This document shows positions 4,427 through 27,145 of a stretch of DNA of 32,000 nt, piece by piece. Within the stretch, counting starts at the first letter, position 1, and the number at the start of each line of letters is the position of its first letter. A program made the translations under genes and the position numbers. The notes below the pieces were generated by a model. That model saw only the letters and a list, made by a program, of their open reading frames with translations, was not told where the DNA came from and did no database searches. Source of the stretch: Candidatus Omnitrophota bacterium (lineage in GTDB: Bacteria; Omnitrophota; Gorgyraeia; Zapsychrales; JANLHA01); assembly GCA_963662715.1 (NCBI GenBank), contig OY759724.1, forward strand, positions 2,850,001 to 2,882,000. The letters run 5' to 3'.

Positions 4427-4449
4427 AAGTCAATAATAGAAGTATTTCC

Positions 4450-4477: not shown

Positions 4478-4594
4478 AGTATAAGTGGTTTAAACAGGAT
4501 GGGATAAGAGAAATGAGGGGCGGGGTCAGCCTAAAAGCCTGTTTTTTTTTGCCCTGGGGTTATCTGTCAGCATAAAACAGAGAGAGGGAAATTG

Positions 4595-4603
4595 TGCTAT
4601 AAT
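4595..4603 (+). promoter_or_regulatory. Candidate extended -10 promoter element (TGcTATAAT)
   Basis: TG at 4595-4596 and a perfect TATAAT at 4598-4603, ~160 nt upstream of the first operon gene. No good -35, but the extended -10 could compensate. Confidence 0.35.
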
Positions 4604-4762
4604 GATAAGTATTAAAACTTATTAAGAATAAATCTTTATTACAGTAATATTTATTTTAAACTATAATGACTGCATCTGAAACACCGAATAGATGATAAGG
4701 TTAAAGAGGAGCCCCGGGAAAGACTTGGGTATAGCTTAGAACATGGGAATTAATATAGGAGC

Positions 4763-5830
4763 ATGATCGAACATTCAAAACCAACACTTGGATTAGAAGA
4801 GAAGAAAGCTGTTTTAGACACCCTTGACACAAATTATATCGCGGAAGGGCCACAGGTCCGCTCTTTTGAGGATGAGGTTGCCGCGTATATAGGCTCCGTT
4901 GGGGGTGTAGCCACCTCCACGGGCACATTAGGTCTCCACCTGGCGCTGCTCTGCTTTGACCTCACCCGGAAAGACGAAGTTCTTATCCCGAGTTATACTT
5001 GCCGGTCGGTTTTAAATGCCGTTTTATATTCTGGAGCCCGGCCCGTATTATGCGATGTCAATAAAGACGATTATAACTTATCTCTGACAGAGGTTAAGAA
5101 TAAGATAACATCAAAAACAAAGGTGATAATCGTTCCGCATATGTTTGGCTGTCCGGCCCCCGTGGACCGCTTCAAAGAGCTGGGGATACCCATTATTGAA
5201 GACTGCGCCCACGCTATCGGGGCGGAATATCAGGGCCGGAAAGTAGGATGTTGGGGGGACCTGGCGCTGTTTTCATTCGAGGGTACGAAGTATATCGTTA
5301 CGGGCGAAGGGGGTATGGTTCAGGCCAATTCTCAGGTCATGCTCGATAAACTTCGAAAACTAAAAGAGAGCGATTCTTTTGATTTTTTAACGAAATATAC
5401 TTACCGGATGACTGATTTGCAGGCGGCCGTGGGCCGGGCTCAACTCAGGAAATTAGACGGTTTTATAGAGAAAAGAAGGTCTATCGCTGAAATCTACAAT
5501 AAAGCTTTTCGGACCTTGCCCGTGACCGGCCCAGAGGATAACTTGAAAGAGGGGCATATTTATCAGCGTTATATGATTCAAATCGGCGGGGGTATTCAGG
5601 CTTTCATGGAAAAATGCTATAAGAAAGGGATCAAGGTCAAACAGCCTGTTAAACCCTATGCGCTTCATTCGTATCTGAGGGTGTCTGCCCGGAGGTATCC
5701 TCATACGGAATATATTATGCATTCAGCCGTTTCTGTCCCCATTTATCCGTCGTTAACAGCCGAACAAACGGTTTATATAACTGAAACTTTAAGGGAACTA
5801 TTAACAGAACATCATGCGAAATCCCCATAA
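4763..5830 (+). CDS. DegT/DnrJ/EryC1/StrS-family PLP-dependent aminotransferase (paralog 1)
   Basis: 355 aa. N-terminus KPTLGLEEKKAVLDTLDTNYIAEGPQVRSFEDEVAAYIG. Core IIEDCAHAIGAEYQGRKVGCWGDLALFSFEGTKYIVTGEGGMV with the Schiff-base Lys in FEGTK. Followed by YRMTDLQAAVGRAQLRKLD. Confidence 0.85.
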   Translation: MIEHSKPTLGLEEKKAVLDTLDTNYIAEGPQVRSFEDEVAAYIGSVGGVATSTGTLGLHLALLCFDLTRKDEVLIPSYTCRSVLNAVLYSGARPVLCDVNKDDYNLSLTEVKNKITSKTKVIIVPHMFGCPAPVDRFKELGIPIIEDCAHAIGAEYQGRKVGCWGDLALFSFEGTKYIVTGEGGMVQANSQVMLDKLRKLKESDSFDFLTKYTYRMTDLQAAVGRAQLRKLDGFIEKRRSIAEIYNKAFRTLPVTGPEDNLKEGHIYQRYMIQIGGGIQAFMEKCYKKGIKVKQPVKPYALHSYLRVSARRYPHTEYIMHSAVSVPIYPSLTAEQTVYITETLRELLTEHHAKSP

Positions 5831-6788
5831 CACAACTGTTTCTCACTATGGTTTTTTGACAGAAAAGGCCAAACGCTTTCCTCCGATGATTGTCGTTGAG
5901 ATCACCAACGTTTGCAATCTGGAGTGCATCCATTGTCCGCATGCCTTTATATCCAAGGAGCCCGGGTACCAGCCACGCTATATGGGCTGGGCTCTTTACA
6001 AAAAAATCGTCGATGAAGTTTCGCAATATCCCGGAACGATTTTCCGGCTGCTGTGTGACGGGGAGCCCTTATGCCATCCGCGCTTTATTGATATGCTCCG
6101 TTATGCGAAGGAGAAAAATGTCCGGCCCGTAAATTTCATTACCAACGGTCTCCTGCTGGATTCTTCCAAGGCAGAGGCTGTTCTGCAATCCGGAGTTGAG
6201 GCTGTGGAATTCAGTCTTGATGCGCTTCACAAAGAGACCTACGAGAAGATCCGGGTGGGATCGGATTTTGAAAAGGTTATGCATAATGTCCACCAGTTTA
6301 TTGAAATGCGCGACCGGCTTAAGGCGCAGACCAAAATTTTTGTGAGCATTATCGATCAGCCGGAAGCCGAACAGGAACTGGAGGCCTTCCTCGCTTATTG
6401 GACGCCGAAGGTCGACCGTGTTCTGACGAGGATGTATACCTCTATCCGGGGTTTGGTCGATACGAGAAAGATTAAGATCGACCCCGACCTGACCCGCTGG
6501 CCATGTCCGGATCTCTGGCGGCGTTTTTTTATCAACGTGGACGGCCTGGCGGAATTTTGTGTGGAAGACTGGTATGACCAGTCTGTTATCGGTGACGTGA
6601 CCCAGGCCGGCATTCATGCTATTTGGCGGTCTCCCGCCTATGAGCGGATCAGGGGCCTGCATTTGCAGGGGAAATTTGAAGAGGTGTCTTATTGCCACCA
6701 CTGTTTAGACTGGCGGGCCCGTGACTGGCATTATGATTATTTCCTGGCCCTTAAAGAAGTTTTGAATCATGAAACAAAGACGGAGTAA
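5814..6788 (+). CDS. Radical SAM enzyme with a single-auxiliary-cluster SPASM/twitch-type C-terminal domain
   Basis: 324 aa. EITNVCNLECIHCPH is CX3CX2C. The C-terminal Cys pattern is C-x17-C-x44-C-x2-C (CPDLWRRFFINVDGLAEFC...YCHHC). It includes the G-x4-C hairpin but lacks the CX5CX3C part of a full SPASM. Overlaps the upstream gene by 17 nt; an alternative start is at 5886. Confidence 0.85.
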   Translation: MRNPHNTTVSHYGFLTEKAKRFPPMIVVEITNVCNLECIHCPHAFISKEPGYQPRYMGWALYKKIVDEVSQYPGTIFRLLCDGEPLCHPRFIDMLRYAKEKNVRPVNFITNGLLLDSSKAEAVLQSGVEAVEFSLDALHKETYEKIRVGSDFEKVMHNVHQFIEMRDRLKAQTKIFVSIIDQPEAEQELEAFLAYWTPKVDRVLTRMYTSIRGLVDTRKIKIDPDLTRWPCPDLWRRFFINVDGLAEFCVEDWYDQSVIGDVTQAGIHAIWRSPAYERIRGLHLQGKFEEVSYCHHCLDWRARDWHYDYFLALKEVLNHETKTE

Positions 6789-6790
6789 AC

Positions 6791-8179
6791 ATGGGAGCTG
6801 CGATATCCCCCAAGACAATAAGAACAACCCGGAGTGTCTGCCCCAAATGCCTTCAGACGATTGATGCCTTTATTGTGGAAAAGGATAACAAGGTTTTCAT
6901 GCAGAAGACCTGTCAGCTGCACGGGTTTTTTGAGATATTGCTCTCAGAGACAGCCCCGTATTATTCTGAACTGGAACAGTATTATTTTGACCTGGCGGAC
7001 GAGCGCAACGAGGTGCCGGAATATGAGATCTGGCCGACCTATAAATGCAACATTGATTGCTCTATTTGCTGTTTCGGGAAACAAAATCATGAGATGGAGG
7101 ACCAGGACGCTTCTCTCTCCCAAATCGAACAGTTCATCAAAAACAGTTCCAAACGCTTTTTTATCCTTTCCGGGGGAGATCCGACCTGCCGGGATGACCT
7201 CGATCAGATCATAAAATTATTCCGGAAATACGGTAAAACGGTCACGATCAACACCAACGGCCTGAAATGCGCGAGCATAAACTATCTTAAAAAACTTAAA
7301 GAGGCTGGCCTGGACCGCCTTAACCTGCAGTTTGACGGTTTTGACCGCAAGGCCTATATTGCGCTGCGGCGTCAGGACTATCTGGATGTGAAGTTGAAGG
7401 TTATTGAAAATTTGAAAACCCTCAATATCCAGACGACGTTCAACGCAACCATAGCCAAGAATCTTAATGAGAACGCCGTTAAAGATTTAATAGATTTCGC
7501 CGCAAAGCATCCGTTTATCAACGGGGTAAACTTTTTTACGATTTGCTACCTGGGCGGCGCCAGGGACTGGGGCCCGGATAACTATATTATGCCTGATGAA
7601 ATTGTCGACTTGCTGCAGCAACAGACGGATCATAAGGTCAGCAAAGAAAATGTCTTTATATTTCAGAAACTTCATCTGGCCATAAAATCCTTTTTATCCC
7701 AGAAATGGTGTTTTTACAATCAGGTTTATCTTTTTGTCCGTGACCGGGGTTCTTATCAGCCGATCGACCGGTATTTGAACCTGGCCAAAGCCGGCCCCTG
7801 GCTGGATAAGTACCGGGACGCTTTTATCAGGAAAAAGTTCTTGTCCCGTTTTTATCTTGGCATGGCGGTTGTGTGTCTGTTCCTGAAGAAAGAATCTTTG
7901 GTCATTTTTAAGGAAATCCTTTTAAGGGGGCTGTCTTATTTCTTGAAAACCCAGCATTATCTGAAAGGCAGCCGTTTCTTTTCCGTCAGTTTTTCGACCG
8001 GGTGCGATCCGTATAAATTTGATCATGATATTGTCAAACATTGTCAAAATGAGATTATCGCGGCTCAGGATGCGACAGGGATCCTGACGGAACTGGGGAG
8101 CGACGGAATTTACTGCATGAATTTAGAGAGAAGACATTTAAACAAAACCTTAAACCAGGAAAGGACGGCGTCCCCTTAA
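6791..8179 (+). CDS. Radical SAM protein with N-terminal CxxC...CxxH metal knuckle (COG1964 / Tes-GDGT-MAS-like architecture), paralog A
   Basis: 462 aa. C17-P-K-C20-x20-C41-Q-L-H44. CX3CX2C at C86/C90/C93 (YKCNIDCSIC). LQFDGF and ENLKTLNIQTTFNATIAK. C-terminal conserved Cys (WCF..., CDPYKFDHDIVKHC). GGAG SD 5 nt upstream. Confidence 0.8.
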   Translation: MGAAISPKTIRTTRSVCPKCLQTIDAFIVEKDNKVFMQKTCQLHGFFEILLSETAPYYSELEQYYFDLADERNEVPEYEIWPTYKCNIDCSICCFGKQNHEMEDQDASLSQIEQFIKNSSKRFFILSGGDPTCRDDLDQIIKLFRKYGKTVTINTNGLKCASINYLKKLKEAGLDRLNLQFDGFDRKAYIALRRQDYLDVKLKVIENLKTLNIQTTFNATIAKNLNENAVKDLIDFAAKHPFINGVNFFTICYLGGARDWGPDNYIMPDEIVDLLQQQTDHKVSKENVFIFQKLHLAIKSFLSQKWCFYNQVYLFVRDRGSYQPIDRYLNLAKAGPWLDKYRDAFIRKKFLSRFYLGMAVVCLFLKKESLVIFKEILLRGLSYFLKTQHYLKGSRFFSVSFSTGCDPYKFDHDIVKHCQNEIIAAQDATGILTELGSDGIYCMNLERRHLNKTLNQERTASP

Positions 8180-8180
8180 T

Positions 8181-9446
8181 ATGCTCAAGGCCTACCCCCG
8201 ACATTCCGTGGATATTACAAAGCATGATTATAAACGGATGCTTGCTTTTTTGTTCGCCCCCCGGTCCGTCAAAGCCGGATATCTGAAGCGGTTCGAGCAA
8301 TCATTCGCCGGATATATCGGGACGCGGTTCGCTTTGTCCATGCCTTCCGCCAGGCTCGGTCTTTATGTCGTGTTGAAATATTTTAATTTCCCCGAGGGGA
8401 CGGAAGTTATTATCACGCCTTTCACCCATCAGAGTATCTTCACGGTTCTCAAAACATTCCGGCTGAAGCCTGTTTTTGTTGACATAGACCCCAAGACCCA
8501 TAACACCAATCCTTCTTTGGTCAAACAGTGTATCTCAGAAAAAACGCGCCTTATGGTTTTGACCCACATGTGGGGGCAGGCCTGTGATATGGACGCTTTT
8601 ATGACGCTGAAAGAGGAATACGGCCTGAAAATCATTGAAGACTGCGCCATGGCGGCCGGGGCCGTTTATAAAGGCAAAAAAGTAGGCAGTTACGGAGATG
8701 CCAGCATATTTAGTTTCGGGAAGGCGAAAGCCATTTGTGCTTTCGGAGGAGGAATGTTGTGCCTGAATGACGAGAAGATGCATGAGTTTGTCGCTTCGGT
8801 CATTAAGGATTTTCAGCCGCCCCGGCCGTTTTCTCTGGTCTTTTCCGTGATCAATTCCGTGGTCGCCAATGTCCTCACCCGTCCGCGATGTTTTTTCCTG
8901 TCGCTTTATCCGGTTATGCGGCTTTTTAATCTCAGAGACCCCTACAATCCGGTTGAGCATAAAAAGGATTCCGAAGTCATTCTGGAGCAGATGCCGGAAG
9001 AATGGAAAGTCCGGTTATCGTCTTTTCAGGCGGCCATAGGCCTTGAACAGCTTAAGACTTTGGAAGAACGCAATGACCGCAGAACCCAAAATGCCCGGAT
9101 TTTGAACTATGCCTTGAAGGACGTCCCGGATATTGGTCTGCCGGAGACGTCAGAACGCGGGCAGCATATTTATCTCTACTATGCGGTTCACATAAAGAAG
9201 AAAACCGATCTGGACAATCTCCGGAAGAAACTGTTGGCGCGGGCCGTGGATACCCAGCTGAATGAATTGACGAATCCCGAGCAGTTAAGCATTTTTGGCG
9301 CGGACAGCGGGTCTTTTCCGGTCTTTGACAAGATCTCTCCCAACATTCTTGTTATTCCCAACGGAATAATGCTGAATGAGCAGGATATCCATGCGGTGGC
9401 ACAGGCGGTCAGGGAATGCCTTGGGCCCGGCGGGGGTGAGATGTAA
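8181..9446 (+). CDS. DegT/DnrJ/EryC1/StrS-family PLP-dependent aminotransferase (paralog 2, long form with internal insertion)
   Basis: 421 aa. YLKRFEQSFAGYIG. IIEDCAMAAGAVYKGKKVGSYGDASIFSFGKAKAICAFGGGML with Lys in FGKAK. RLSSFQAAIGLEQLKTL. Between the Lys region and the QAAxGxxQL helix there is a segment ~50 aa longer than in paralog 1, partly hydrophobic. Confidence 0.8.
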   Translation: MLKAYPRHSVDITKHDYKRMLAFLFAPRSVKAGYLKRFEQSFAGYIGTRFALSMPSARLGLYVVLKYFNFPEGTEVIITPFTHQSIFTVLKTFRLKPVFVDIDPKTHNTNPSLVKQCISEKTRLMVLTHMWGQACDMDAFMTLKEEYGLKIIEDCAMAAGAVYKGKKVGSYGDASIFSFGKAKAICAFGGGMLCLNDEKMHEFVASVIKDFQPPRPFSLVFSVINSVVANVLTRPRCFFLSLYPVMRLFNLRDPYNPVEHKKDSEVILEQMPEEWKVRLSSFQAAIGLEQLKTLEERNDRRTQNARILNYALKDVPDIGLPETSERGQHIYLYYAVHIKKKTDLDNLRKKLLARAVDTQLNELTNPEQLSIFGADSGSFPVFDKISPNILVIPNGIMLNEQDIHAVAQAVRECLGPGGGEM

Positions 9447-9449
9447 GAT

Positions 9450-10763
9450 ATGATAAAGGATGATAAGTTCAGTCACATCGTCAGGGCGACTGAAAGCGTG
9501 TGTCCGGTTTGTCTGGACTCCGTTCAGGCATTGGTGCAAATCCGGGGGGAGTCTGTTTATCTTGAAAAGACATGTCCCCGGCACGGAGATTTCCGCGTCC
9601 TCTTATCGAAACACGCCAAAGATTATAAGGAGTTGTCGGATTGCTATTTCTATTTTATCCCGCAGGCTTTGGTGCAGAAAGAATATTACCTCTGCGCAAC
9701 CATGCAGTGCAATATCTCCTGCCCGATTTGTTTTCTGGATTACTGTCAGGACAGGCAGGACCTCTCTTTTGAACGTCTGGCAGACAACCTCCGCGATAAA
9801 ACAGACGTGGAAAGATTTACTTTTTCCCATGGCGAACCGACCGTCAGTCCGCAATTACCCGATATGATCCGGGCTTTGAAACGGGCGAATAAACTGGTTA
9901 ACATTCATACCAACGGCGTCAGACTGGCGGATTATGATTATGCGCTTTCCTTGAGGAACGCCGGGCTCGACCATGTCAGCCTGCAGTTCGATGGTTTCCG
10001 GGACGAGATTTATCAGGCTCTCCGGGGGGCGCGGTTATTGGATGTTAAATTAAAAGCTCTGGAGAACCTCAAACGTTTATCCTTGCCGGTCACTTTAAAT
10101 GTCACGGTGGCCAAGGAGGTGAACGATGATGAATGCGGCCGGATCTTCGATTATGTCGTTAAAAATGATTTCATGAAAGACCTGAGTTATATCACTTATT
10201 GCCATTATTCTCCTGACGATAAGGATATGGAACGTTATATGATGCCCGATGATCTTTTGGTTATTCTGGAAAAACACACCCAAGGCCGGCTGCAAAGAGA
10301 AAATATCATCCATTTTCAGAAACTATATTATGCTTATCTCAGTGCGTCGCATAAGAGAAAATGCTTCAATTATTATCATTATTTTATCGTCCGGACAAAG
10401 ACAGGCTATCGCGGAATCGACCAGTACCTGGATTTAAAAAAGATCGCGCGGGCCATAGACCGCTGCAAAGATCAAAAGAAGAAGATGACGCGCTGGAGGC
10501 TTTATAAAATATTGCTGACATCCTTGAAAAAATCCAGCCTGTTTTTGATCCCTTATGGGGTGTCCCTGGTGTTGAGAGGGGGATATCCCAAAAAACCGGG
10601 ACGGTTCCTGGTGGTGACCTTTGCCAGTATCTGTGACCCTTATAAGTATGATGCCACGGTCGCTTTGAATTGCGGGCAGGGGATTGTGACGCAGAAAAAT
10701 GAACAGGAAAGTTACGGTTCATATATTATCGAAGAAATGAAAACTTTAAGAGTCCAGTCATGA
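9450..10763 (+). CDS. Radical SAM protein with N-terminal CxxC...CxxH metal knuckle (COG1964 / Tes-GDGT-MAS-like architecture), paralog B
   Basis: 437 aa. C18-P-V-C21-x20-C42-P-R-H45. MQCNISCPIC. VSLQFDGF and ENLKRLSLPVTLNVTVAK. KCFNYYH and CDPYKYDATVALNC. Confidence 0.8.
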   Translation: MIKDDKFSHIVRATESVCPVCLDSVQALVQIRGESVYLEKTCPRHGDFRVLLSKHAKDYKELSDCYFYFIPQALVQKEYYLCATMQCNISCPICFLDYCQDRQDLSFERLADNLRDKTDVERFTFSHGEPTVSPQLPDMIRALKRANKLVNIHTNGVRLADYDYALSLRNAGLDHVSLQFDGFRDEIYQALRGARLLDVKLKALENLKRLSLPVTLNVTVAKEVNDDECGRIFDYVVKNDFMKDLSYITYCHYSPDDKDMERYMMPDDLLVILEKHTQGRLQRENIIHFQKLYYAYLSASHKRKCFNYYHYFIVRTKTGYRGIDQYLDLKKIARAIDRCKDQKKKMTRWRLYKILLTSLKKSSLFLIPYGVSLVLRGGYPKKPGRFLVVTFASICDPYKYDATVALNCGQGIVTQKNEQESYGSYIIEEMKTLRVQS

Positions 10764-13671: not shown

Positions 13672-13673
13672 AC

Positions 13674-16675: not shown

Positions 16676-16690
16676 GCGGACTGGCAAATC

Positions 16691-19544: not shown

Positions 19545-19577
19545 TGCGAAACGTTTTTTATTACCGAGCGGGGTACG

Positions 19578-21098: not shown

Positions 21099-21136
21099 AG
21101 AAATGTTGGCCTTTTGAAAAGAAAGTTTCTGCATCC

Positions 21137-22747
21137 ATGCGAAAATTCAATTTGTTAGCCGTTTTCTTGAAATACCGCATCCTGTTGCTCGTATTGCTGT
21201 TGATTGATATTCTACGAAATCCTTTTTATCTTAATTTTGTTGAGTCCTCGGACCGCCTGCGGGAATTCTCCAAATACATTTTCTTGAGATCAGCCGTTTT
21301 AAATCAAATTATTGACAACGGGGTAACGGTTTTAAATAAGCAATTTCATTTGTTGCAGGGTGCGTTCACCAATATTTTGCTTTATTTCGGCGGCTATGTT
21401 TTGCTGTGTGTCATCTCTGCGGTTTCCCGGAAGAATGCGGACCGCCGCGCCCATCCGTCCCTTGTCCCGGGAATACTGATTATCCTGTGGTCTTTTATTT
21501 ACGTTTTTTGTCTGAAGGATTTTCCTCCCGGCATAAGTTTCTGCCTTATGGCCTGTATGGTCGGGGTTGCGGGCATGGATTTCATCCTTTTTTTCAGGGA
21601 AGGTTTTTTCGATAATAAATCTAATAAAAACATTTTTGCCGGTTTTTTTACGTCCGTTATTTTTCTGAGTGAATTGTTCTGCGCCCCGCTCTATTGGCAA
21701 TTTTTATGTGTGTTGCAGGGGAAGAAATTCCCGAAAAAGATTTCCGTTGTTATTCAGCACGGGCATTTTATGCTCTTTATGGCTGTGGCGCTGATTTTCC
21801 TGTCTCCCCTTGAGAGCCCGTCCATTATTGAGATGCGACAGATCAAAAAAGGCCAGTACTATGGTCTGCAGTATTATAAGGATAATATCCTGGTGGCGCT
21901 TAATGATTTCGAAGGACAGGTGGAACGTATCCACGTGGGTCATGATGTGTCTACAAAGGTCATTTACCGTTCGACGTTTCCCCGGGGCACGGAGGAGGCC
22001 ATGGGGGAGAGGCTGGCTTTGAGCCCTGAGAGAGAAGAGGTGTATTTTACGGACAGGAAACAAAGCCAGCTGATCGTTGCGGATGACCGCAGTCAGAAAA
22101 TAAAAGCAATGATTTCTTCCGATGTCTTCGATATGGGGGATAATGCTCTTGCTTACATGAACGGTCACGTTTATGGACTTACGGAAGAAAAACTGTGCGT
22201 TTATAAAATTGATATGTCGAGCGCCGCTCCCCAACATGTCCCGCGTTATTGCATCAATGAAGGAGAGGGAGGGATCATCCTGCCTAACGGGCCGCGTAAT
22301 GTTTTATATGCCGCGAACTGGAATGATCCGGAAAACCGATTTTTTATTTATGAGATTGACGGCCAGACACTGGATATTCACAGACGTTTCCCGATGCCGG
22401 CTGCCGGAGTGGCTATGGCCGCCGAAAACGGCAAAAAACTGTATTGTATCTGGCCAAGGAATCTTTATGTTTTAGATGCCGGGAATTTTCGTGTTGTTGA
22501 TAAAATGAAGCTTTCTTACGGCCTGATGAACACGTTTTCCCTGGATGATACGAATCAATTGGTATTCGGGGCGAACCATTTCACCAATATCATCGAAGTC
22601 ATCGATTTAAAGACCAAGAAAACAGTGCAATATTTCCGGGCGGGGATCGGCAATTCCCATATCAGCAGAATCACGGTTGATGCGGAGAATAAAAATTTTT
22701 ATGCCACGGTATTCCGCGACGGCATTTATATGGGGCATTATGAATAG
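21137..22747 (+). CDS. Polytopic membrane protein (about 6 N-terminal TM segments) with C-terminal beta-propeller-like repeat domain; function unknown
   Basis: 536 aa. Hydrophobic segments include ILLLVLLLIDIL, YFGGYVLLCVISAV, LVPGILIILWSFIYVFCL, FCLMACMVGVAGMDFILFF and FMLFMAVALIFLSPL. The C-terminal ~300 aa carries repeated LY(v)xxxxxxxxxVxVIDxxT-type strands (NVLYAANWND...FFIYEIDGQT; NLYVLDAGNFRVVDKM; NIIEVIDLKTKKTV), as in YVTN/YncE-type propellers. Confidence 0.5.
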   Translation: MRKFNLLAVFLKYRILLLVLLLIDILRNPFYLNFVESSDRLREFSKYIFLRSAVLNQIIDNGVTVLNKQFHLLQGAFTNILLYFGGYVLLCVISAVSRKNADRRAHPSLVPGILIILWSFIYVFCLKDFPPGISFCLMACMVGVAGMDFILFFREGFFDNKSNKNIFAGFFTSVIFLSELFCAPLYWQFLCVLQGKKFPKKISVVIQHGHFMLFMAVALIFLSPLESPSIIEMRQIKKGQYYGLQYYKDNILVALNDFEGQVERIHVGHDVSTKVIYRSTFPRGTEEAMGERLALSPEREEVYFTDRKQSQLIVADDRSQKIKAMISSDVFDMGDNALAYMNGHVYGLTEEKLCVYKIDMSSAAPQHVPRYCINEGEGGIILPNGPRNVLYAANWNDPENRFFIYEIDGQTLDIHRRFPMPAAGVAMAAENGKKLYCIWPRNLYVLDAGNFRVVDKMKLSYGLMNTFSLDDTNQLVFGANHFTNIIEVIDLKTKKTVQYFRAGIGNSHISRITVDAENKNFYATVFRDGIYMGHYE

Positions 22748-22796
22748 AGCCCAAGATGCAAGCGGGGGAAACTTTACAAGAAACGGATGAGGCAAC

Positions 22797-23837
22797 GTGA
22801 GAGAAACGAGAACTCTTTATAAAACAATTATGATGTTTCTTGTCCCGACCTGCCTTACGGTCGTCGTCCTGTATCTGTTATTCAGAAAAGTGGATCTGCC
22901 GATGATGTGGGCTTCTATGCGGCAGATCCATCCTGTGTTTCTTTTAACAGCGTTTTCAATTTCTGTTTTCTGTAACATCGCGGTTTATGCGCTGATTCGG
23001 TGTAAGATATGGCGGATCATGGGCGTTCCGGTCTCTTACCGGGAATCGGTTTTTATCAGGCTGGGAAGCCTGCCGTTTCAGGCGATCCCGACATTTAAAG
23101 ATACCGGCTTAGCCAAGGCCATATACCTGAAAAAATTTTTTGCCATGCCGATGACGGAAGGAGTTCTATCAAATATTATTGCCAATATTTTCAGCGTGAC
23201 GGCAATAATATCTTTGGCGGTCGCCGGCGCTCTGGCGAACGGAATCAATGTGATGCATATGTCTCAGATCAACCAGCCGCTTCTGCTCAGAGTGGTCCCG
23301 GTTATCGGGGTGATCAGCTTCGTCCTTTATGCGTTTTATTTTCATCAGCCCTTTGGGAAAAAAATGCTTTTTCATGTCTGCTTCAAAAGAAACCCGGACC
23401 TGTACCGTATTTTTGAAAAAAATATGCATCTCTGGAAAAAACTTCCCGGGGTCCGGCTCTTCAGCTTTTTTGCCCTGGCCCTTGCTTTTAAGTTAGCCGA
23501 GGTGTCTATTTTTTTTGTCTTAGCGCAGGCGTATTCTTTGAATATCCCCTTTTCGGCTATTTTACTTTTTGTCCCTTTGGCCATGATTATCAGCGAGTCG
23601 CCGGCCAATATCTCCGGACTTGGGGTCAGGGAAGGGGCCCTTGTGCTGTTTTTCTGGAATTTTGCGGCCAAGGAAACCCTTGTGGCCATGGCTGTGCTGG
23701 TTTTTGTTTTTAACCGGCTCTGTCCGTTAATACTGGGACTTGTGTTTTGTTATCCGTTTTTTTCCAGGTTAGGGGTATCATGGAAAAGCGTCAGGGCCAT
23801 GGCGGGCCGGGAAGGAATAAATTCATTTTCTACATAA
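22797..23837 (+). CDS. Flippase-like / lysyl-PG-synthase-TM (UPF0104) family integral membrane protein
   Basis: 346 aa with a GTG start (GAGG 5 nt upstream). N-terminus LLFRKVDLPMMWASMRQIHPVFLLTAFSISVF...RCKIWRIM and a multi-TM body. It includes SESPANISGLGVREGALVLFF, typical of this family, which is often adjacent or fused to GT2 enzymes. Confidence 0.6.
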   Translation: MRETRTLYKTIMMFLVPTCLTVVVLYLLFRKVDLPMMWASMRQIHPVFLLTAFSISVFCNIAVYALIRCKIWRIMGVPVSYRESVFIRLGSLPFQAIPTFKDTGLAKAIYLKKFFAMPMTEGVLSNIIANIFSVTAIISLAVAGALANGINVMHMSQINQPLLLRVVPVIGVISFVLYAFYFHQPFGKKMLFHVCFKRNPDLYRIFEKNMHLWKKLPGVRLFSFFALALAFKLAEVSIFFVLAQAYSLNIPFSAILLFVPLAMIISESPANISGLGVREGALVLFFWNFAAKETLVAMAVLVFVFNRLCPLILGLVFCYPFFSRLGVSWKSVRAMAGREGINSFST

Positions 23838-23855
23838 AAAGGCCATTGTTGATTC

Positions 23856-24584
23856 ATGCTAAATCAAACGATTTCTCTGGTTGTTCCTGTTTATAATGAG
23901 GCGGAAATCATCGCGGAAACAGTTGCCGTTTTTGACGACGCCTTAAGGAGCATCTGCCGGGATTACGAAATCATTATCGTGGACGACGGAAGCGTTGATG
24001 AAACCCCGGGGATTCTTCAGCGCCTCTGTTCCCAGCACGTTCGTTTAAAGATTATGCATAATTCTGCCAATATCGGAAGCGGGGCCAGCCTTTGGCGGGG
24101 CTTTCAGCAGGCGGGCAAAGACCTTGTCGTCAGCAATTTCGCGGACAGGCCTTTTGATGTTACGGAGCTGGGAAGAATTATCCCGTCCGTTGATTTCAGC
24201 GCCACAGACTTCGTCGTGGTTGTCCGGCAGGACAGAAGCGCAAACACACCCTATCGTAAGATCACGTCTTTGACGAATTATTGGCTTATCCGATGCCTTT
24301 TCCGAATTGAGATTTCTGATTTCCAATTTGTGCAGATTTACAGGCGGGACATCCTGAAGGGCGTTCGCATTGACTCCCAGGAAACATTTGTTCCCCCCGA
24401 GCTTATGATCAGGCTGATTCAAAAGGGATATCGGTATCAGGAGGTTGTTTCTTCTTTTTATAGACGGCCCGGGGGCCAGCCCAAGTGCGGTCATCCCGGG
24501 AAAATCATGAAAAGTATATTTGATATTTTAAAATTTTGGATATCCTGGGAAATCTTGGGGAAAAAGGACGGAGGGGAGCGATGA
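23856..24584 (+). CDS. Family 2 glycosyltransferase (polyprenyl-phosphate sugar synthase-like: DPM1/GtrB/CsbB/ArnC type), short form without C-terminal TM helices
   Basis: 242 aa. ISLVVPVYNEAEIIAETV...YEIIIVDDGSVDETPGIL...NSANIGSGASLWRGF is the GT-A N-terminal signature. Confidence 0.8.
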   Translation: MLNQTISLVVPVYNEAEIIAETVAVFDDALRSICRDYEIIIVDDGSVDETPGILQRLCSQHVRLKIMHNSANIGSGASLWRGFQQAGKDLVVSNFADRPFDVTELGRIIPSVDFSATDFVVVVRQDRSANTPYRKITSLTNYWLIRCLFRIEISDFQFVQIYRRDILKGVRIDSQETFVPPELMIRLIQKGYRYQEVVSSFYRRPGGQPKCGHPGKIMKSIFDILKFWISWEILGKKDGGER

Positions 24585-25279
24585 GAATCAGCATTATGCA
24601 ACCCGGGTATTTACCCTGGCTGGGTTTCTTTGACCTGATGGCCCGCTGTGAACTGTTTGTGATACTCGATGACGTCCGGTTTGCCCCAAGGGACTGGCGT
24701 AGCCGTAACCGGATCCGCACCAAAGACGGATGGGTCTGGTTGACGGTCCCGGTTTTATCCAAAGGCCGGGCCGGGCAAAACATTCTAGACGCTCAAATCA
24801 ATAATGATATCAACTGGCGTCATACTCATTTGAACTGTTTGAGAATTCATTATGCGAAGGCCCCGTATTTTAAGGATTACATCCGATTGTTCGAGGATGT
24901 TTACACCCGACAGTGGAACAGCCTGCTGGAGCTGGATATGGCCCTGATTTCCTCCCTGTCCCGGCAAATGAAGATTGAGACCCCTGTCATGCACTCGTCA
25001 TCTTTATCTCTTACGGATGTCTCCGGCAATGAACGTATCATTAAAATCTGTCAAGAACTGGACGCCCAAGAGCTTTACGACAGTCAGGGCGCTAAGCCGT
25101 TTATCCAAATGCCTCTATTTGAGGAAGCGAATATCCGGGTGGTTTTTCAGGATTACCGGCATCCGGAATATCAACAAGTTTATGAACCGTTTTTACCGTA
25201 TATGTCTGTCGTTGATTTATTGTTTAACGAAGGGCCGCGGAGCAAGGATGTTCTGCTGCGTGATGGCCCTTCCGGTTAA
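24581..25279 (+). CDS. WbqC-family protein
   Basis: Track ORF starts at 24536, but ATG 24581 (ATGA overlap with the GT2 stop; GGAGGGGAG SD upstream) gives MRISIMQPGYLPWLGFFDLMARCELFVILDDVRFAPRDWRSRNRIRTKDGWVWLTVPV. This is the characteristic WbqC-like N-terminus. Confidence 0.75.
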   Translation: MRISIMQPGYLPWLGFFDLMARCELFVILDDVRFAPRDWRSRNRIRTKDGWVWLTVPVLSKGRAGQNILDAQINNDINWRHTHLNCLRIHYAKAPYFKDYIRLFEDVYTRQWNSLLELDMALISSLSRQMKIETPVMHSSSLSLTDVSGNERIIKICQELDAQELYDSQGAKPFIQMPLFEEANIRVVFQDYRHPEYQQVYEPFLPYMSVVDLLFNEGPRSKDVLLRDGPSG

Positions 25280-25309
25280 AGGGTAGACAAGGAAAAGGAA
25301 GATGGTTTT

Positions 25310-27145
25310 ATGAAGAAATATCCCTGGATGCCGTTTTTCATATTATTGGCTGTTGCGTTGGGCTTTGCGGCCCCTGTCTTGAAAAACATCCATTACTGGG
25401 GCCATATGGACTGGGACCAGTTTACATTCTGGCATGCCGTCCCGCGGGAAACAATTTTAAAATACCGTCAGTTCCCGCTTTGGAATCCTTATGTCAACGG
25501 CGGAAATGTCCTGCTGGCCCATCCTCATTCGGCTTTTTTATCCCCTTTTTTTATTTGTGTTCTGATCTGGGGGCCGGTTATCGGCCTTAAGCTGGAGATA
25601 GTGCTCCATCTGTTTGCCGGGCTGACGGGGATGTACACGCTGTCGAGATATATGAAGATGAACGAACGGGCCGCTTATCTCTCTTCTTTTGTCTATATGT
25701 TAAGTTCGATTTTCCCGTTGCACTTGGGGGAAGGACAAGCCGAGTGGCTTTCCCTGGCTTTTGTCCCCTGGTTTTTTTTGTTTTTTTTGAAAACAATAGA
25801 TGCGGACATGGCCCGTCGGACGGTTACGGCTGAATCATCCGGAAGGACAGACCTTGCTTCCGGACCGGTGAGGCATGGGAATCCTTTGGCGGGAATAAAG
25901 AATTTTACGGCTGCCGTATTTTTTTTGGGCATGATTTTGGTGAGCGGGGTATATGTCTTTAACATCCTCTTCGTATTTTTGTGCTTGTATTCTCTCCTGA
26001 AATCGGTCCGAGAGAAGAGCCCGGCGCCCCTTAAAATTTTCAGCGTCATTCTCCTGGGGGCATGTTTGTTGTGCGCTGTTAAACTGCTGCCCATGCTGGA
26101 ATTTTTAAACCAGTATCCCCGGCTGATCGACCAAAAGAGCGGGCTGGGCTGGGACACATTAGGAACCATGCTTTTCAGCCGGCAACAGGCCCTTTTGGAC
26201 ATGCGTCTCTGGGAAACGGTTCTTCTTGAGACAGGGGAATATCAGTACGGCTGGCATGAATACGGAGCCTATGTCGGATTTCTGCCTTTCTTTTTGTTCC
26301 TTTACGGGGTTTTCAAAAGATATAAGAAGAACTGGCCTTTAATCCTCACCGCCGTTATCTGCCTACTGATTGTTTTGGGGGCGCGCGCTCCCGTCAATAT
26401 CTGGGGCTTCCTTCGTCATTTCCCGGTCTATAAATCCCTTACGGTACCCTCGAGATTTATTTTTTGTTTCATTTTTCCGTTTGCCTTGTTGGCGGGCTGG
26501 GGGCTGTTTTGTTTGGAATCGTATTTGCCGCAGAGGGCTAAATCATTATCCGTCATGATTGTTCTGCTGGTCCTCACGGATTTATGGCAGGTCAATGCTC
26601 CGATCTTTAAAAATGTTTTCAGAATACCTCCGGTTAAGGTGTCCAGCGCCGGAGAGTTCCGGCAGCGGTACGACAAGATTAATTTTTATGAGGATAAAGA
26701 TATCAACCGCAGTTCTCAATACCCGGTTTTCCTGAGTCATAGCGGGATTCTGGATGCTTACGAATGCGTGCAGGTCAAACGGGGCGATGTCCGTGCGCTG
26801 ACCGATCCCGGATACCGGGGGGAGATTTATTTTAAAGACAATAAGGGGGACATTTTAAGCCAACAGTTTTCTCCCAATAAAATTACCGTTGATATTGAAA
26901 CAGAAGAGCAGGATGTCCTGGTCATCAACCAGAATTATTATCGGGGATGGCGTCTCCGCTATAACGGACGTAAACAGCAGCCTGTCAGTTACAACGGGTT
27001 GATCGCGGCTTCTGTCCCGCCGGGCCGTCACCGCATAATTTTTTATTATTTGCCTTGGAGTTTCATCCTGGGGCTGGGGGTGAGTTTGGCTTTTATCGGC
27101 GGAATCCTTTTTTGTTTTATCAAAAATTCCCAATATCGGGGATAG
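25310..27145 (+). CDS. Large polytopic membrane protein, probable GT-C-fold glycosyltransferase (YfhO-like)
   Basis: 611 aa with more than 10 hydrophobic segments. N-terminal ...RETILKYRQFPLWNPYVNGGNVLLAHPHSAFLSPF resembles the YfhO-family QxPLWNPxxxxGxPxLAxxQS motif. C-terminal ~170 aa soluble domain followed by one last TM. Confidence 0.55.
   Translation: MKKYPWMPFFILLAVALGFAAPVLKNIHYWGHMDWDQFTFWHAVPRETILKYRQFPLWNPYVNGGNVLLAHPHSAFLSPFFICVLIWGPVIGLKLEIVLHLFAGLTGMYTLSRYMKMNERAAYLSSFVYMLSSIFPLHLGEGQAEWLSLAFVPWFFLFFLKTIDADMARRTVTAESSGRTDLASGPVRHGNPLAGIKNFTAAVFFLGMILVSGVYVFNILFVFLCLYSLLKSVREKSPAPLKIFSVILLGACLLCAVKLLPMLEFLNQYPRLIDQKSGLGWDTLGTMLFSRQQALLDMRLWETVLLETGEYQYGWHEYGAYVGFLPFFLFLYGVFKRYKKNWPLILTAVICLLIVLGARAPVNIWGFLRHFPVYKSLTVPSRFIFCFIFPFALLAGWGLFCLESYLPQRAKSLSVMIVLLVLTDLWQVNAPIFKNVFRIPPVKVSSAGEFRQRYDKINFYEDKDINRSSQYPVFLSHSGILDAYECVQVKRGDVRALTDPGYRGEIYFKDNKGDILSQQFSPNKITVDIETEEQDVLVINQNYYRGWRLRYNGRKQQPVSYNGLIAASVPPGRHRIIFYYLPWSFILGLGVSLAFIGGILFCFIKNSQYRG

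Follow-up and report, generated by a model that had tools for sequence, protein, structure and literature searches.

A conserved radical SAM-rich gene island in Candidatus Omnitrophota that may tailor an envelope sugar

Introduction

What kind of product would be built by ten radical SAM (rSAM) enzymes encoded among twelve adjacent genes? This question is raised by a locus of Candidatus Omnitrophota, which we analysed within a stretch of 32,000 nucleotides (contig OY759724.1, positions 2,850,001 to 2,882,000), referred to here as the window and used for all coordinates. We found no paper in the literature that describes the locus. The window holds most of a chromosomal biosynthetic island, and below we develop a model, to which we give an even chance, in which anaerobic rSAM chemistry tailors an amino or diamino sugar; this sugar is then attached to polyprenyl phosphate, flipped, and moved to an envelope acceptor.

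Results

The open reading frames of the window include 17 consecutive, tightly packed genes on the plus strand at 4763-27145 (g1 to g17), as a first-pass annotation had described. With the longest-ORF starts, the junctions between them range from -49 to +49 nt; the narrower range reported earlier (-17 to +49 nt) holds if g7 and g16 start later. The packing of the genes suggests that they form an operon, and G+C content is even across the locus. Upstream of g1 lies a non-coding gap of 397 nt (4366-4762), which contains no plus-strand ORF of at least 25 aa and is a candidate promoter region, with sigma70-like matches at 4450-4477 and 4638-4667 (10/12 each) that are consensus matches only.

Pfam domains and a motif scan agree with the gene types previously assigned to the first twelve genes. 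Ten encode rSAM enzymes with an intact CxxxCxxC motif, present once in each protein, and comprise one twitch-type, three Zn-ribbon/Tes-like, five B12-type and one methylthiotransferase-like enzyme that lacks a TRAM domain; the remaining two genes encode DegT aminotransferases. Even assuming that 3% of genes encode rSAM enzymes, the probability of ten among twelve adjacent genes is ~1e-13, and the arrangement recurs in many genomes, which together argue that chance can be excluded. The window holds no PKS/NRPS, ACP/Fab or terpene synthase gene, no nucleotidyltransferase or sugar dehydratase gene, and no conserved precursor-peptide ORF, in line with the first reading of the sequence.

The boundary proposed at 27145 did not stand, as the locus runs on past this position and past the end of the window. 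Convergent with g17 is a previously overlooked gene, d1 (27157-28650, minus strand), which encodes a PaaK/CapK-like adenylate-forming ligase of 497 aa (PaaK structure, 4e-25). Its matches to the NCBIfam PaaK, DVU1553 and FlxY models are under cut-off, CapK_C is the precomputed Pfam match of its relatives, and syntenic copies with 62-65% identity occur in L001-L004 and L019-L022. Two flanking genes had been called B12-type. The call holds for d4 (31724-32000, plus strand), the N-terminus of a B12-binding rSAM enzyme cut by the window end (Pfam B12-binding, 2e-8), whose full-length orthologue in L020 and L021 has 501 aa and is followed by a third DegT gene; in L006 and L011 the d4 orthologue lies directly upstream of g1. 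By contrast, Pfam finds no B12 domain in d2 (28632-30131, minus strand), although this rSAM protein is homologous to the B12-type paralogues g6-g12 (25-29% identity). It has a degenerate N-terminal domain, a CPCSCSYC motif and a Radical_SAM score of 29.4 bits, slightly under the Pfam cut-off, and its real start is probably later because its orthologues have 471 aa. Between d2 and d4 lies d3 (30488-31660, plus strand), a HEAT-repeat protein (HEAT_2, 2e-34) whose translation begins with a hydrophobic anchor segment. Both d2 and d3 are syntenic in relatives. In P0197 (984 aa), a g17-like GT-C protein is naturally fused to HEAT repeats, and d3 is likely a partner of g17. The island thus encodes at least 11 rSAM enzymes and a twelfth that the window end interrupts.

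Gene-neighbourhood conservation across related genomes, a check set beforehand, gave a positive result: at least 11 species-level metagenome-assembled genomes (MAGs) of Omnitrophota share the synteny, with each paralogue kept separately, and the locus has so far been seen only in Candidatus Omnitrophota. The B12-type and Tes-like paralogues are 57-84% identical to their positional counterparts elsewhere and only 34-49% identical to their neighbours in the window, which indicates that they have distinct, selected functions. The low identity within the window also rules out an assembly artefact, the other explanation for such an array that had been raised beforehand. The island lies after a conserved Dus/MtaB/TIR flank, and at the same position relatives carry other sets of glycosylation genes. 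Their loci continue with the third DegT gene, more rSAM genes and an ArnT-like GT-C gene. PMT_2/ArnT-like GT-Cs lie beside the rSAM array in L013, L014 and L021; GT2s and TPR proteins surround it in other lineages; and in L010 the gene directly upstream of the g2 orthologue encodes a GT2-phosphoglycosyltransferase fusion (EPS_sugtrans, 258 bits). In L020, L021, L027, L028 and L029, GT-C or flippase-like genes adjoin a recurring pair, a B12-type rSAM gene followed by a g4-like DegT gene. Genes for sugar activation, such as those for a nucleotidyltransferase or a 4,6-dehydratase, are absent from the window and from the related loci examined, which counts against a sugar product.

The aminotransferases and the twitch-type enzyme point toward such a product. 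The g1 protein (4763-5830, 355 aa) is a DegT-family PLP sugar aminotransferase (Pfam DegT, 8e-83) with an SFEGTK lysine motif; its best NCBIfam matches, PseC, LegC and ArnB, are all under cut-off, its solved relatives are 7b0m, 7b0d, ArnB and perosamine synthase, and its orthologues in relatives are 58-70% identical. The g4 protein (8181-9446, 421 aa; Pfam DegT in two stretches, 6e-70) belongs to a distinct subfamily with an insert and retains SFGKAK, the invariant lysine motif. Its orthologues form a tight clade of at least 50 90%-clusters at 51% identity or more, after which identity drops to 36%. Since both proteins retain the PLP lysine and all of their solved relatives are sugar or inosose aminotransferases, they point to a sugar or cyclitol substrate. 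Between them, g2 (5814-6788, 324 aa; Radical_SAM and SPASM, CNLECIHC motif), which adjoins g1 in every relative compared, has four conserved C-terminal cysteines (C231, C249, C294 and C297) that would suffice for one auxiliary cluster. Its closest matches among solved structures are BtrN (8e-10) and DesII (7e-4), two sugar-modifying rSAM enzymes, and from its sequence g2 is a candidate secondary-alcohol dehydrogenase.

The substrate of the Tes-like and B12-type enzymes could be either a sugar or a lipid. The Tes-like proteins g3 (6791-8179, 462 aa), g5 (9450-10763, 437 aa) and g11 (18204-19544, 446 aa) combine Zn_ribbon_HMPTM and Radical_SAM domains, with g5 34-40% identical to the other two. 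The g3 protein matches the GDGT-MAS/Tes structure 7tol (9e-44) and has conserved residues at C17/C20/C41/H44, C86/C90/C93 and C307/C405/C418; its NCBIfam scores for TrsS (178 bits) and Tes (156 bits) fall well short of the respective cut-offs (490 and 450). GDGT-MAS/Tes, the sole characterised relative of these enzymes, works on lipid tails rather than sugars, which counts against the sugar model.

Five proteins carry Pfam B12-binding and Radical_SAM domains: g6 (10760-12337, 525 aa; 7e-19 and 6e-24, respectively), g8 (13674-15182, 502 aa), g9 (15179-16675, 498 aa), g10 (16691-18220, 509 aa) and g12 (19578-21098, 506 aa). The g6 orthologue is 71-84% identical in relatives, compared with 41-48% for g6 and its paralogues in the window; g9 shares 76-83% identity with its orthologues from closer relatives and 69% with that from L006, and L001, L020 and L021 each carry a g12 orthologue at 74% identity. 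The best solved relatives of g9 are AprD4 (2e-15), TsrM, HemN, OxsB, CysS and TokK. The best NCBIfam matches of the B12-type paralogues, far under cut-off, are the lipid and tetrapyrrole enzymes HpnJ, TIGR04072 and BchE, which again weighs against a sugar. The methylthiotransferase-like g7 (12313-13671, 452 aa; UPF0004 and Radical_SAM), which may start later than 12313, scores 223.6 against the TIGR00089 cut-off of 251 and conserves all three N-terminal auxiliary-cluster cysteines (C20, C56 and C88). The protein contains an insert of ~85 aa, and the TRAM-length extension found at the C-terminus of MtaB is missing.

The last five genes fit the polyprenyl-phosphate-sugar/GT-C module recognised earlier. 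The soluble GT2 (GT-A) glycosyltransferase g15 (23856-24584, 242 aa) has ArnC (7e-15), DPMS (4e-11) and GtrB (5e-8) as its closest solved relatives, which makes it a candidate polyprenyl-phosphate sugar synthase, and scores 67 against the NCBIfam ArnC cut-off of 529. Unlike ArnC and GtrB, it lacks a transmembrane helix, and no GtrA/ArnEF-type flippase is present; both count against a lipid-carried sugar. The g14 protein (22797-23837, 346 aa; PF03706, 9e-21) is a flippase-like membrane protein of the LPG_synthase_TM (MprF/AglD/HpnL) type with ~8 hydrophobic segments, and the NCBIfam 'flippase-like domain' model TIGR00374 recognises a relative in L028. For g17 (25310-27145, 611 aa), Pfam matches the YfhO C-terminus (4e-10) and, weakly, the AftD GT-C N-terminus. 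Its AF2 model (pLDDT 92.5, pTM 0.93) confirms the predicted GT-C fold, with all top 16 Foldseek matches being GT-C proteins (AglB, PglB, STT3, ALG12, AftD, AftA and Pmt4), and a DxD-like motif in the first loop (D34-W35-D36) is conserved in 51 homologues. The g13 protein (21137-22747) combines a polytopic membrane anchor (~1-230) with a 7-bladed beta-propeller (~230-536), as judged by hydropathy and an AF2 model in which the propeller has a pLDDT of ~80 and the transmembrane part is poorly predicted. It has no Pfam or NCBIfam match, generic WD40/propeller matches in Foldseek, and a small family (5 clusters in a set of 5.8e9; 20 representatives at E<=1e-30 in a set of 1.84e9). The WbqC-family protein g16 (24536-25279; 5e-74), whose Pfam match begins at residue 22, probably starts ~20 codons later; sequence searches found no solved relative, and the literature yielded nothing functional on WbqC.

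Discussion

We favour an envelope sugar because the relatives of the DegT proteins and g2 act on sugars or inososes, the island encodes an export module (g14, g15 and g17), and polyprenyl-phosphate glycosylation genes surround the rSAM array elsewhere. The first-pass proposal, a heavily tailored envelope lipid, glycolipid or glycan, is supported in each element that could be checked. The analysis shows which domains are present, that g17 has a GT-C fold, that catalytic and cluster-binding residues are conserved, and that the locus is syntenic with each paralogue kept separately; we infer every chemical step, the step order, the substrate and the acceptor. In this pathway, g1 would transaminate a keto-sugar carried on a nucleotide or already on polyprenyl phosphate, g2 would oxidise an adjacent secondary alcohol to a ketone, needing neither NAD nor O2, in the manner of BtrN and DesII, and g4 would aminate that ketone. 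Five to seven separately kept B12-type paralogues would perform distinct C-H functionalisations, most likely C-methylations, with dehydration or ring rearrangement of the AprD4/OxsB/HpnJ kind a possible alternative. Three to five Tes-like enzymes would make C-C bonds at unactivated carbons, and g7 may introduce a sulfur or methylthio group. An amine would be N-acylated by d1, possibly with g16. Docked on g14, which is of AglD/MprF type, g15 would load the sugar onto polyprenyl phosphate for flipping, and g17 would pass it to a periplasmic acceptor (LPS/lipid, glycan or protein), perhaps assisted by d3 and g13.

In keeping with the first-pass annotation, the island matches no characterised pathway: none of its proteins scores high enough to pass the curated NCBIfam threshold of one. 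Membership was rejected, with scores under cut-off, for Tes, TrsS, HpnJ, HpnR, BchE and AprD4, for the 'ladderane' B12 family TIGR04072, RiPP methylases and MiaB/RimO, and for PseC, ArnB, DesI and ArnC. We know of no glycan pathway with more than a few rSAM enzymes, which counts against the sugar model. The earlier dismissal of aminoglycoside pathways is correct for membership but rather hasty as to chemistry, as the DegT/twitch-rSAM/DegT core (g1-g2-g4) resembles BtrS-BtrN-BtrS and DesI-DesII-DesV, the aminotransferase/rSAM/aminotransferase logic used in 2-deoxystreptamine and desosamine biosynthesis.

Organization and extent of the island

Radical SAM (rSAM) enzymes provide an anaerobic means of functionalizing unactivated C-H bonds, and pathways that employ over three or four such enzymes are, to our knowledge, uncommon and confined almost entirely to RiPP, cofactor and antibiotic synthesis. 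The ORF list of the window contains 17 consecutive + strand genes (g1-g17, 4763-27145), whose junctions measure -49 to +49 nt when the longest ORFs are used. The two largest overlaps (g6/g7 and g15/g16) probably result from start codons called too early, which is likely for g16 because its WbqC Pfam match starts at residue 22. Based on Pfam, g1 (4763-5830) and g4 (8181-9446) encode DegT aminotransferases, g2 (5814-6788) combines Radical_SAM with SPASM, and g3 (6791-8179), g5 (9450-10763) and g11 (18204-19544) combine Zn_ribbon_HMPTM with Radical_SAM. Five genes (g6, g8, g9, g10 and g12) encode B12-binding and Radical_SAM domains, and g7 (12313-13671) encodes UPF0004 and Radical_SAM. The array closes with g13, which has no Pfam match, followed by LPG_synthase_TM (g14), GT2 (g15), WbqC (g16) and a YfhO C-terminus (g17). 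Each of the 10 rSAM proteins among g1-g12 contains exactly one CxxxCxxC motif. Pfam and motifs together confirm the census proposed in the first-pass annotation, which counted one twitch-type, three CxxC-knuckle, five B12-domain and one methylthiotransferase (MTTase)-like rSAM enzyme, two DegT proteins and a five-gene membrane and glycosylation module. Even at a generous genomic rSAM frequency of 3%, we infer that chance is excluded as the source of ten rSAM genes among twelve adjacent genes, and recurrence of the array in other genomes provides independent support.

The tight packing of g1-g17 and the absence of any strong intergenic terminator from the array in a terminator scan suggest that these genes form an operon. 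Promoter and terminator scans of the window otherwise gave consensus-level hints only, and an Rfam scan of 1-32000 returned no family at its gathering score, including no cobalamin or SAM riboswitch. The G+C content is even across the locus (0.44-0.50) and therefore gives no sign of recent foreign insertion.

The 17-gene run stands as first described, but 4763-27145 does not hold as the limits of the island, since four further genes (d1-d4) are all syntenic with g13-g17 in related contigs. Convergent with g17 is d1 (27157-28650, - strand), which encodes a PaaK/CapK-like adenylate-forming ligase, and it is followed by d2 (28632-30131, - strand), an rSAM protein that is 25-29% identical to the B12 paralogues and in which Pfam detects no B12 domain. 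A divergent promoter region separates d2 from d3 (30488-31660, + strand), which encodes a membrane-anchored HEAT-repeat protein, and d4 (31724 onward, + strand) is the start of another B12-rSAM gene, of which the B12 domain alone is visible before the window ends. In two related loci, L006 and L011, the d4 orthologue lies directly upstream of g1. The window thus holds 11 complete rSAM genes of the island and a truncated twelfth; a B12-binding domain is recognizable in six window genes, with d2 as a related seventh. Two other related loci, L020 and L021, continue past the d4 orthologue with a third DegT gene of the g4 type, one or two more B12-rSAM genes and a small rSAM gene, and their far end carries an ArnT-like PMT_2 GT-C or a second LPG_synthase_TM protein. 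Because these loci run on, the window most likely cuts the island, which by analogy with its relatives would extend past 32000, where related islands add two or three rSAM genes.

Conservation among related loci

Named relatives of the window proteins come almost entirely from Candidatus Omnitrophota/Omnitrophica MAGs, with a few labelled by their submitters as 'uncultured Planctomycetales/Planctomycetia'. At least 11 MAGs among the GTDB species representatives carry the island, a number that undercounts carriers because the scan relied on two strict peptide patterns. The first-pass annotation had proposed gene-neighbourhood conservation as a check, and mapping related loci on other contigs against the window proteins showed that gene order is kept. 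The order g1-g2-g3-(0-2 extra Tes-like genes)-g4-g5-g6-g7-g8-g9-g10-g11, in which Tes-like denotes the Zn-ribbon rSAM genes, is preserved in L005-L011, down to 62% g4 identity. The more divergent loci L013, L014, L016 and L017 (52-57%) contain the same genes, but g7 precedes g4 and the order of the B12 genes is changed. Islands vary in the position of g7, in the number of Tes-like genes (3-5) and in the number of B12 genes (5-7), with two extra B12 genes between g11 and g13 in L001-L004.

Within the window, protein identity is 41-49% among the B12 paralogues and 34-40% among the Zn-ribbon paralogues. Their positional counterparts in L001-L011 are closer, at 57-84% identity versus 34-49% for in-window neighbours, which indicates that the paralogues are old duplicates that are each kept by selection and argues for distinct catalytic steps. 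This divergence and separate conservation, together with independent assembly of the same array in many samples, exclude a collapsed or expanded assembly artefact as the source of the array. A single 918-aa ORF in L008 (12648-15404) contains two Tes-like genes, as either a true fusion or a frameshift or assembly issue.

The surroundings of the array also vary. L010 lacks the g1 DegT gene and encodes, directly upstream of its g2 orthologue, a GT2 fused to a polyprenyl-phosphate phosphoglycosyltransferase (5703-7037; Bac_transf 8e-61, EPS_sugtrans 258 bits), while PMT_2 GT-Cs, a 317-aa GT2 and TPR proteins flank the array in L013 and L014. Distant relatives of g4 (~32% identity) have a B12-rSAM gene immediately upstream and lie beside GT-C, GT2 or flippase-like genes. 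One such locus (L027 1-21263, GCA_964570585.1) encodes seven B12-rSAMs, one of them a 1040-aa double enzyme, along with a SPASM rSAM, two GT2s, a g4-like DegT, three PMT_2 GT-Cs and an α/β hydrolase, which suggests a wider class of 'B12-rSAM + DegT + GT-C' islands. L029, which is from Omnitrophota, contains a YfhO-like gene, three PMT_2 genes, a B12-rSAM and a DegT. In L028 (7807-11275 and 12263-15929), a triad of flippase-like LPG_synthase_TM, B12-rSAM and g4-like DegT (32%) is located one gene away from a squalene-hopene cyclase, with a genuine HpnH (366 bits, cut-off 225) close by. This triad may represent an undescribed module for head-group amination of hopanoids or lipids. Genes for an inositol-1-phosphate synthase and a CDP-alcohol phosphatidyltransferase are located 5-9 kb upstream of it.

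Aminotransferases and the twitch enzyme

Both DegT proteins contain the Schiff-base lysine, within SFEGTK in g1 and an invariant SFGKAK in g4, and their solved relatives are all sugar or inosose aminotransferases. Pfam matches g4 in two stretches, which indicates a distinct, insert-bearing DegT subfamily; the clade of g4 orthologues is sharply bounded, as at least 50 90%-clusters show 51% identity or more and identity then falls to 36%. Between the two DegT genes, g2 conserves C231, C249, C294 and C297 in its C-terminal region besides the rSAM triad (seven orthologues). Four cysteines are enough for one auxiliary cluster, which points to a twitch domain and not to a complete SPASM domain, and their spacing presumably matches that of the BtrN twitch domain. 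The best solved relatives of g2 are BtrN (8e-10) and DesII (7e-4), both sugar-modifying rSAM enzymes, and the matched region is the core alone.

These first genes fit the reading that we prefer, in which an amino or diamino sugar is tailored by rSAM enzymes, carried on a lipid, flipped and placed on the envelope. We give the scheme as a whole about an even chance of being right and any single step a much lower one. The same genes also bear on the possibility that the product is a diffusible antibiotic resembling an aminoglycoside or aminocyclitol, made by an anaerobic route and maybe used by predatory or parasitic Omnitrophota, with the membrane genes serving in export or self-protection. The DegT, BtrN-like twitch rSAM and DegT core matches the butirosin route to 2-deoxystreptamine, inosose aminotransferases are among the matches of the DegT proteins, the closest solved relative of g9 is the apramycin enzyme AprD4, and B12-rSAM C-methylases are typical of the gentamicin and fortimicin pathways. 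However, the window and its relatives lack a 2-deoxy-scyllo-inosose synthase, an inositol-phosphate synthase, a GT1 or GT4 glycosyltransferase for a pseudo-oligosaccharide, an rRNA methylase or modifying enzyme for resistance, and an ABC or MFS exporter. Furthermore, a GT-C and a lipid-carrier GT2 are foreign to aminoglycoside clusters, and the similarity to AprD4 and BtrN is confined to the rSAM core and falls far below family cut-offs. We consider an antibiotic improbable. Membership in the aminoglycoside/2-deoxystreptamine pathways was rejected, as neither the window nor the syntenic loci encode a DHQS-like 2-deoxy-scyllo-inosose synthase or other cyclitol-forming enzyme. A desosamine-type route was likewise rejected on the absence of a dehydratase, the weak DesII match and DesI equivalog scores of 125-138 against a cut-off of 650.

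Tes-like, B12 and MTTase-like enzymes

The Tes-like enzymes g3, g5 and g11 conserve the ribbon residues C17, C20, C41 and H44, the rSAM triad and three further cysteines (C307, C405 and C418). They match the tetraether synthase GDGT-MAS (PDB 7tol) at 9e-44 over ~250 residues, with the C-terminal region unmatched. NCBIfam Tes (NF045702) scores g3, g5 and g11 at 156, 124 and 161 bits against a cut-off of 450, and TrsS scores the three at 170-180 against 490. On these scores and an absence of ether-lipid context, membership in Tes was rejected, and the three enzymes are, by sequence comparison, a separate subfamily of the Tes/TrsS superfamily.

The B12 paralogues g6, g8, g9, g10 and g12 have the class B architecture, in which a B12-binding N-terminal domain precedes a CxxxCxxC rSAM core, and are predicted to use cobalamin. 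Besides AprD4, g9 resembles the TsrM, OxsB, CysS and TokK structures. The best NCBIfam matches of the paralogues are all sub-threshold, at 98-114 against 578 for HpnJ and 84-109 against 360 for TIGR04072. A hopanoid HpnI/J/K/L module was rejected on the HpnJ scores and because the window contains no shc or hpnH gene, both of which occur next to the distant L028 triad alone, and a proposed ladderane-type cluster was rejected on the TIGR04072 scores and the lack of Fab/ACP genes in the window. In g7, the three N-terminal cysteines that ligate the second cluster of MTTases are kept, and an insert of ~85 residues is present. The protein stops at the point at which MtaB continues into its TRAM domain and scores 223.6 against a MiaB/RimO subfamily cut-off of 251. 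Membership of g7 in MiaB, RimO or MtaB was therefore rejected even though the UPF0004 cysteines and the rSAM core are present.

These families bring in the strongest rival to a tailored sugar, namely a glycolipid whose tails are the substrate. In that case, the Tes-like and B12 enzymes would act on a membrane lipid, an isoprenoid or hopanoid, or the polyprenyl carrier through tail-to-tail C-C coupling, methyl branching and cyclization, as Tes, Hgm, Grs, HpnP and HpnR do, and DegT, GT2 and GT-C would only make and mount an amino-sugar head group. The sole characterized relative of the Tes-like enzymes acts on lipid tails and Tes is among their top NCBIfam matches, the top NCBIfam matches of the B12 paralogues are HpnJ and TIGR04072 ('lipid biosynthesis B12/rSAM'), and g14 belongs to the MprF/HpnL lipid-flippase-like family. 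The hopanoid neighbours of the L028 triad add to this case. Members of all three rSAM classes are documented lipid tailors (10.1101/2023.10.20.563219). However, the scores for Tes, HpnJ and TIGR04072 all fall far below threshold, neither the window nor the syntenic Omnitrophota loci contain a fatty-acid, ether-lipid, isoprenoid or hopanoid gene, and the L028 adjacency is one case. In addition, a simple head group would hardly call for the two to three sugar-type aminotransferases of each island. We regard this glycolipid reading as unlikely.

Proposed transfer module

The tailored-sugar reading assigns the end of the array to lipid-carrier transfer. The g15 product is a soluble GT2 with no hydrophobic segment or TM helix, whose closest solved relatives are ArnC (7e-15), DPMS (4e-11) and GtrB (5e-8). 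It scores 67 against an NCBIfam ArnC cut-off of 529 and is a candidate polyprenyl-phosphate charging enzyme. Its neighbour g14 falls in the 'flippase-like' LPG_synthase_TM family of MprF/HpnL type, for which, as far as we know, a flippase role is established for MprF alone; it has no match in the PDB, and no GtrA or EamA-type protein is present. AglD, the archaeal dolichol-phosphate-mannose synthase, consists of a GT2 domain fused to an LPG_synthase_TM-type membrane domain. InterPro groups LPG_synthase_TM with AglD (family name quoted in PMC12324291). If the fusion is as described, the adjacent g14 and g15 resemble a split AglD, which would explain why g15 lacks TM helices.

An AF2 model of g17 built from 51 homologues has a pLDDT of 92.5 and a pTM of 0.93. 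When the model was compared with the PDB using Foldseek, the best 16 matches were all GT-C enzymes (AglB, PglB, STT3, ALG12, AftD, AftA and Pmt4; E 2e-5 to 4e-3). The residues D34-W35-D36 in the first extracytoplasmic loop are conserved among the 51 homologues, at what we take to be the expected site of the GT-C catalytic acidic motif. The g17 protein thus combines a GT-C fold, as modelled, with an acidic first-loop motif. The HEAT-repeat protein d3 may work with this GT-C, as Rosetta-stone evidence comes from a natural fusion in L030 (8001-10955, 984 aa) of a g17-type GT-C (42% identity) and a d3-type HEAT domain (40%). The g13 protein is predicted to be a polytopic anchor followed by a seven-bladed β-propeller, for which the structure match is generic and has little bearing on function. 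Its family is small: protein sets of 5.8 billion and 1.84 billion sequences gave 5 clusters and 20 representatives (E≤1e-30), respectively. For the WbqC protein g16, a sequence search found no solved relative and a literature search gave no functional account.

Upstream flank

Upstream of the island, the window begins with a partial Dus-like gene (tRNA dihydrouridine synthase; 5' end, 1-395, - strand), which was recognized by visual inspection and from its synteny with L006 and L030, followed by a genuine MtaB (550-1851, + strand; 382 bits, cut-off 357). The latter was rejected as an island member, as it is a bona fide MtaB and belongs to the conserved flank. This flank of Dus, MtaB and TIR protein is conserved, while the genes that follow vary by lineage and are always glycosylation-related; in L030, they are a HEAT-GT-C fusion, PMT_2-TPR, rSAM-SPASM and GT2. 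The presence of different Omnitrophota glycosylation sets after one flank suggests a hot spot for turnover of surface-glycan genes. A 2026 preprint on complete Omnitrophota genomes describes hypervariable-locus cargo that includes LPS/capsule glycosyltransferase and polysaccharide genes, and this island is absent from its account (10.64898/2026.06.07.730766). The TIR gene (1876-2757, + strand) encodes a 293-aa protein with a C-terminal TIR of the CAP12/Pycsar-effector type (PF10137, 1e-10) and a match to the PADLOC candidate defence family PDC-S35 (8e-13), and a shorter homologue follows MtaB in L030 (4606-5163). A defence role is possible for this gene, which borders the variable island.

Between the TIR gene and g1, a + strand gene (3394-3933) encodes a 179-aa protein with an N-terminal hydrophobic segment, which is a possible signal peptide or anchor, and a weak, sub-threshold glutaredoxin-like C-terminus (E 0.005). 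Another + strand gene (3977-4366), located 397 nt upstream of g1, encodes a type IV pilin- or pseudopilin-like protein with an N_methyl motif, weak PilA, GspG and ComGC matches and a Ser/Thr/Gly-rich C-terminus. The pilin gene is relevant to the possibility that the island modifies a protein or peptide, in which case the rSAM enzymes would act as they do on proteusins and alter the side chains of a RiPP-like precursor, pilin or other surface protein that the GT-C would also glycosylate. Both B12-rSAM and SPASM/twitch enzymes are characteristic of proteusin-type RiPPs, RiPP methylase families appear among the weak NCBIfam matches, and protein oligosaccharyltransferases head the structural matches of the g17 model. 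However, the orthologous islands in L005, L006 and L008-L017 have no pilin gene upstream, which suggests that it is probably unrelated and led us to reject it as a general substrate; in this genome, it is a possible GT-C acceptor. Moreover, the island and its immediate surroundings contain no conserved small ORF, the window contains no leader-peptide-binding RRE domain, protease or nitrile-hydratase-like leader, and RiPP tailoring has no use for two to three sugar aminotransferases. Modification of a protein or peptide therefore appears very improbable, and a proteusin-type or other rSAM RiPP cluster was rejected because of the missing small ORF, the sub-threshold RiPP rSAM scores and the unconserved pilin.

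Proposed pathway and its significance

Under the tailored-sugar reading, g1 would aminate a keto-sugar, g2 would oxidize a neighbouring hydroxyl to a ketone by radical chemistry, and g4 would aminate that ketone. Such aminotransferase/rSAM/aminotransferase sets have precedents in the biosynthesis of 2-deoxystreptamine (BtrS-BtrN-BtrS) and desosamine (DesI-DesII-DesV). Genes for sugar activation or for a dehydratase were not found in the window or the related loci examined. The B12 paralogues could then perform position-specific C-alkylations or rearrangements like those of AprD4, OxsB or HpnJ, the Tes-like enzymes could form C-C bonds, g7 could insert sulfur or a methylthio group, and d1, possibly with WbqC, could acylate an amine. 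Finally, g15 and g14 would load the sugar onto polyprenyl phosphate and flip it, and g17, aided by d3 (HEAT repeats) and g13 (β-propeller), would transfer it to an envelope acceptor. A bolder possibility, which we hold to be less likely than not, is that these steps amount to previously unseen glycan chemistry, in which Tes-type C(sp3)-C(sp3) coupling, multiple cobalamin-dependent C-alkylations and small-molecule methylthiolation act on a lipid-linked amino-sugar to give an envelope unit that is polyalkylated, possibly also carbocyclic or cross-linked, and found in Omnitrophota alone. In that event, a Tes family member would for the first time have a substrate that is not a lipid, and an MTTase-like enzyme would for the first time have one other than RNA or protein.

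In this locus, an rSAM array is coupled to machinery for lipid-carrier glycosylation, and the arrangement has been conserved between species of a phylum that is uncultured and whose members are often ultra-small and host-dependent. If the model is true, the Tes-like, class B and MTTase-like enzymes would have new activities on non-canonical substrates, and the product would be a lineage-specific surface structure that could bear on cell-cell attachment of Omnitrophota or serve as a biomarker. The locus would also offer a clonable test bed (~30-40 kb) for anaerobic tailoring of sugars or lipids. Furthermore, the unit of B12-rSAM, insert-bearing DegT and flippase-like protein or GT-C recurs outside the island in the separate loci L027, L028 and L029, which, if the model is true, suggests a more general, undescribed pathway.

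Comparison with known systems

Literature searches, including full text, on Omnitrophota rSAM and DegT/B12-rSAM topics found no description of this locus. The first-pass annotation held that the cluster resembles none of the known rSAM-rich pathways it considered, and this view is borne out by the island proteins, which fail every family tested against a curated threshold. At the class B enzymes, the B12 paralogues share their architecture with GenK, Fom3, TokK/ThnK, CysS, PoyC, HpnP/R, Hgm, HpnJ, OxsB and AprD4, but reach none of these families at cut-off and form a set of five to seven divergent (41-49%), individually conserved paralogues in one locus. We know of no glycan pathway with such a B12-rSAM array. 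Similarly, g3, g5 and g11 have the Zn-ribbon, rSAM core and extra conserved cysteines in common with Tes/GDGT-MAS and TrsS, but they score one third of the cut-offs, occur as three to five paralogues per island and lie among sugar aminotransferases and glycosyltransferases, with no archaeol or ether-lipid genes nearby.

At the start of the island, g1, g2 and g4 follow the same gene logic as the 2-deoxystreptamine (BtrS-BtrN-BtrS) and desosamine (DesI-DesII-DesV) cores. However, the similarity of g2 is weak, at least one Tes-like gene separates g2 from g4, and the 2-DOI synthase, NDP-hexose 4,6-dehydratase and N,N-dimethyltransferase of those routes are absent from the island. At its other end, the joint encoding of a GT2, a flippase-like protein, a GT-C and a DegT protein (as ArnB) resembles three-component lipid-carrier systems, namely Arn, Gtr, CsbB/GtcA/YfhO, archaeal AglD/AglR/AglS and mycobacterial PpgS/Rv3632/Rv3779. 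In contrast to Arn- and Gtr-type systems, the GT2 lacks TM segments, the flippase type differs from GtrA/ArnEF, no protein reaches equivalog cut-offs, ArnA (formyltransferase/decarboxylase) and ArnD (deformylase) are absent, and 10-18 rSAM genes lie between aminotransferase and transfer module. Taken together, these analogies suggest that the transfer end may work like Arn, Gtr, CsbB-YfhO or AglD-AglS and the first genes like BtrS/BtrN or DesI/DesII/DesV. The island would then encode envelope glycosylation by way of a lipid carrier, its novelty being an rSAM tailoring block that exceeds in size those of all glycan pathways known to us, and the product could be categorically new chemistry.
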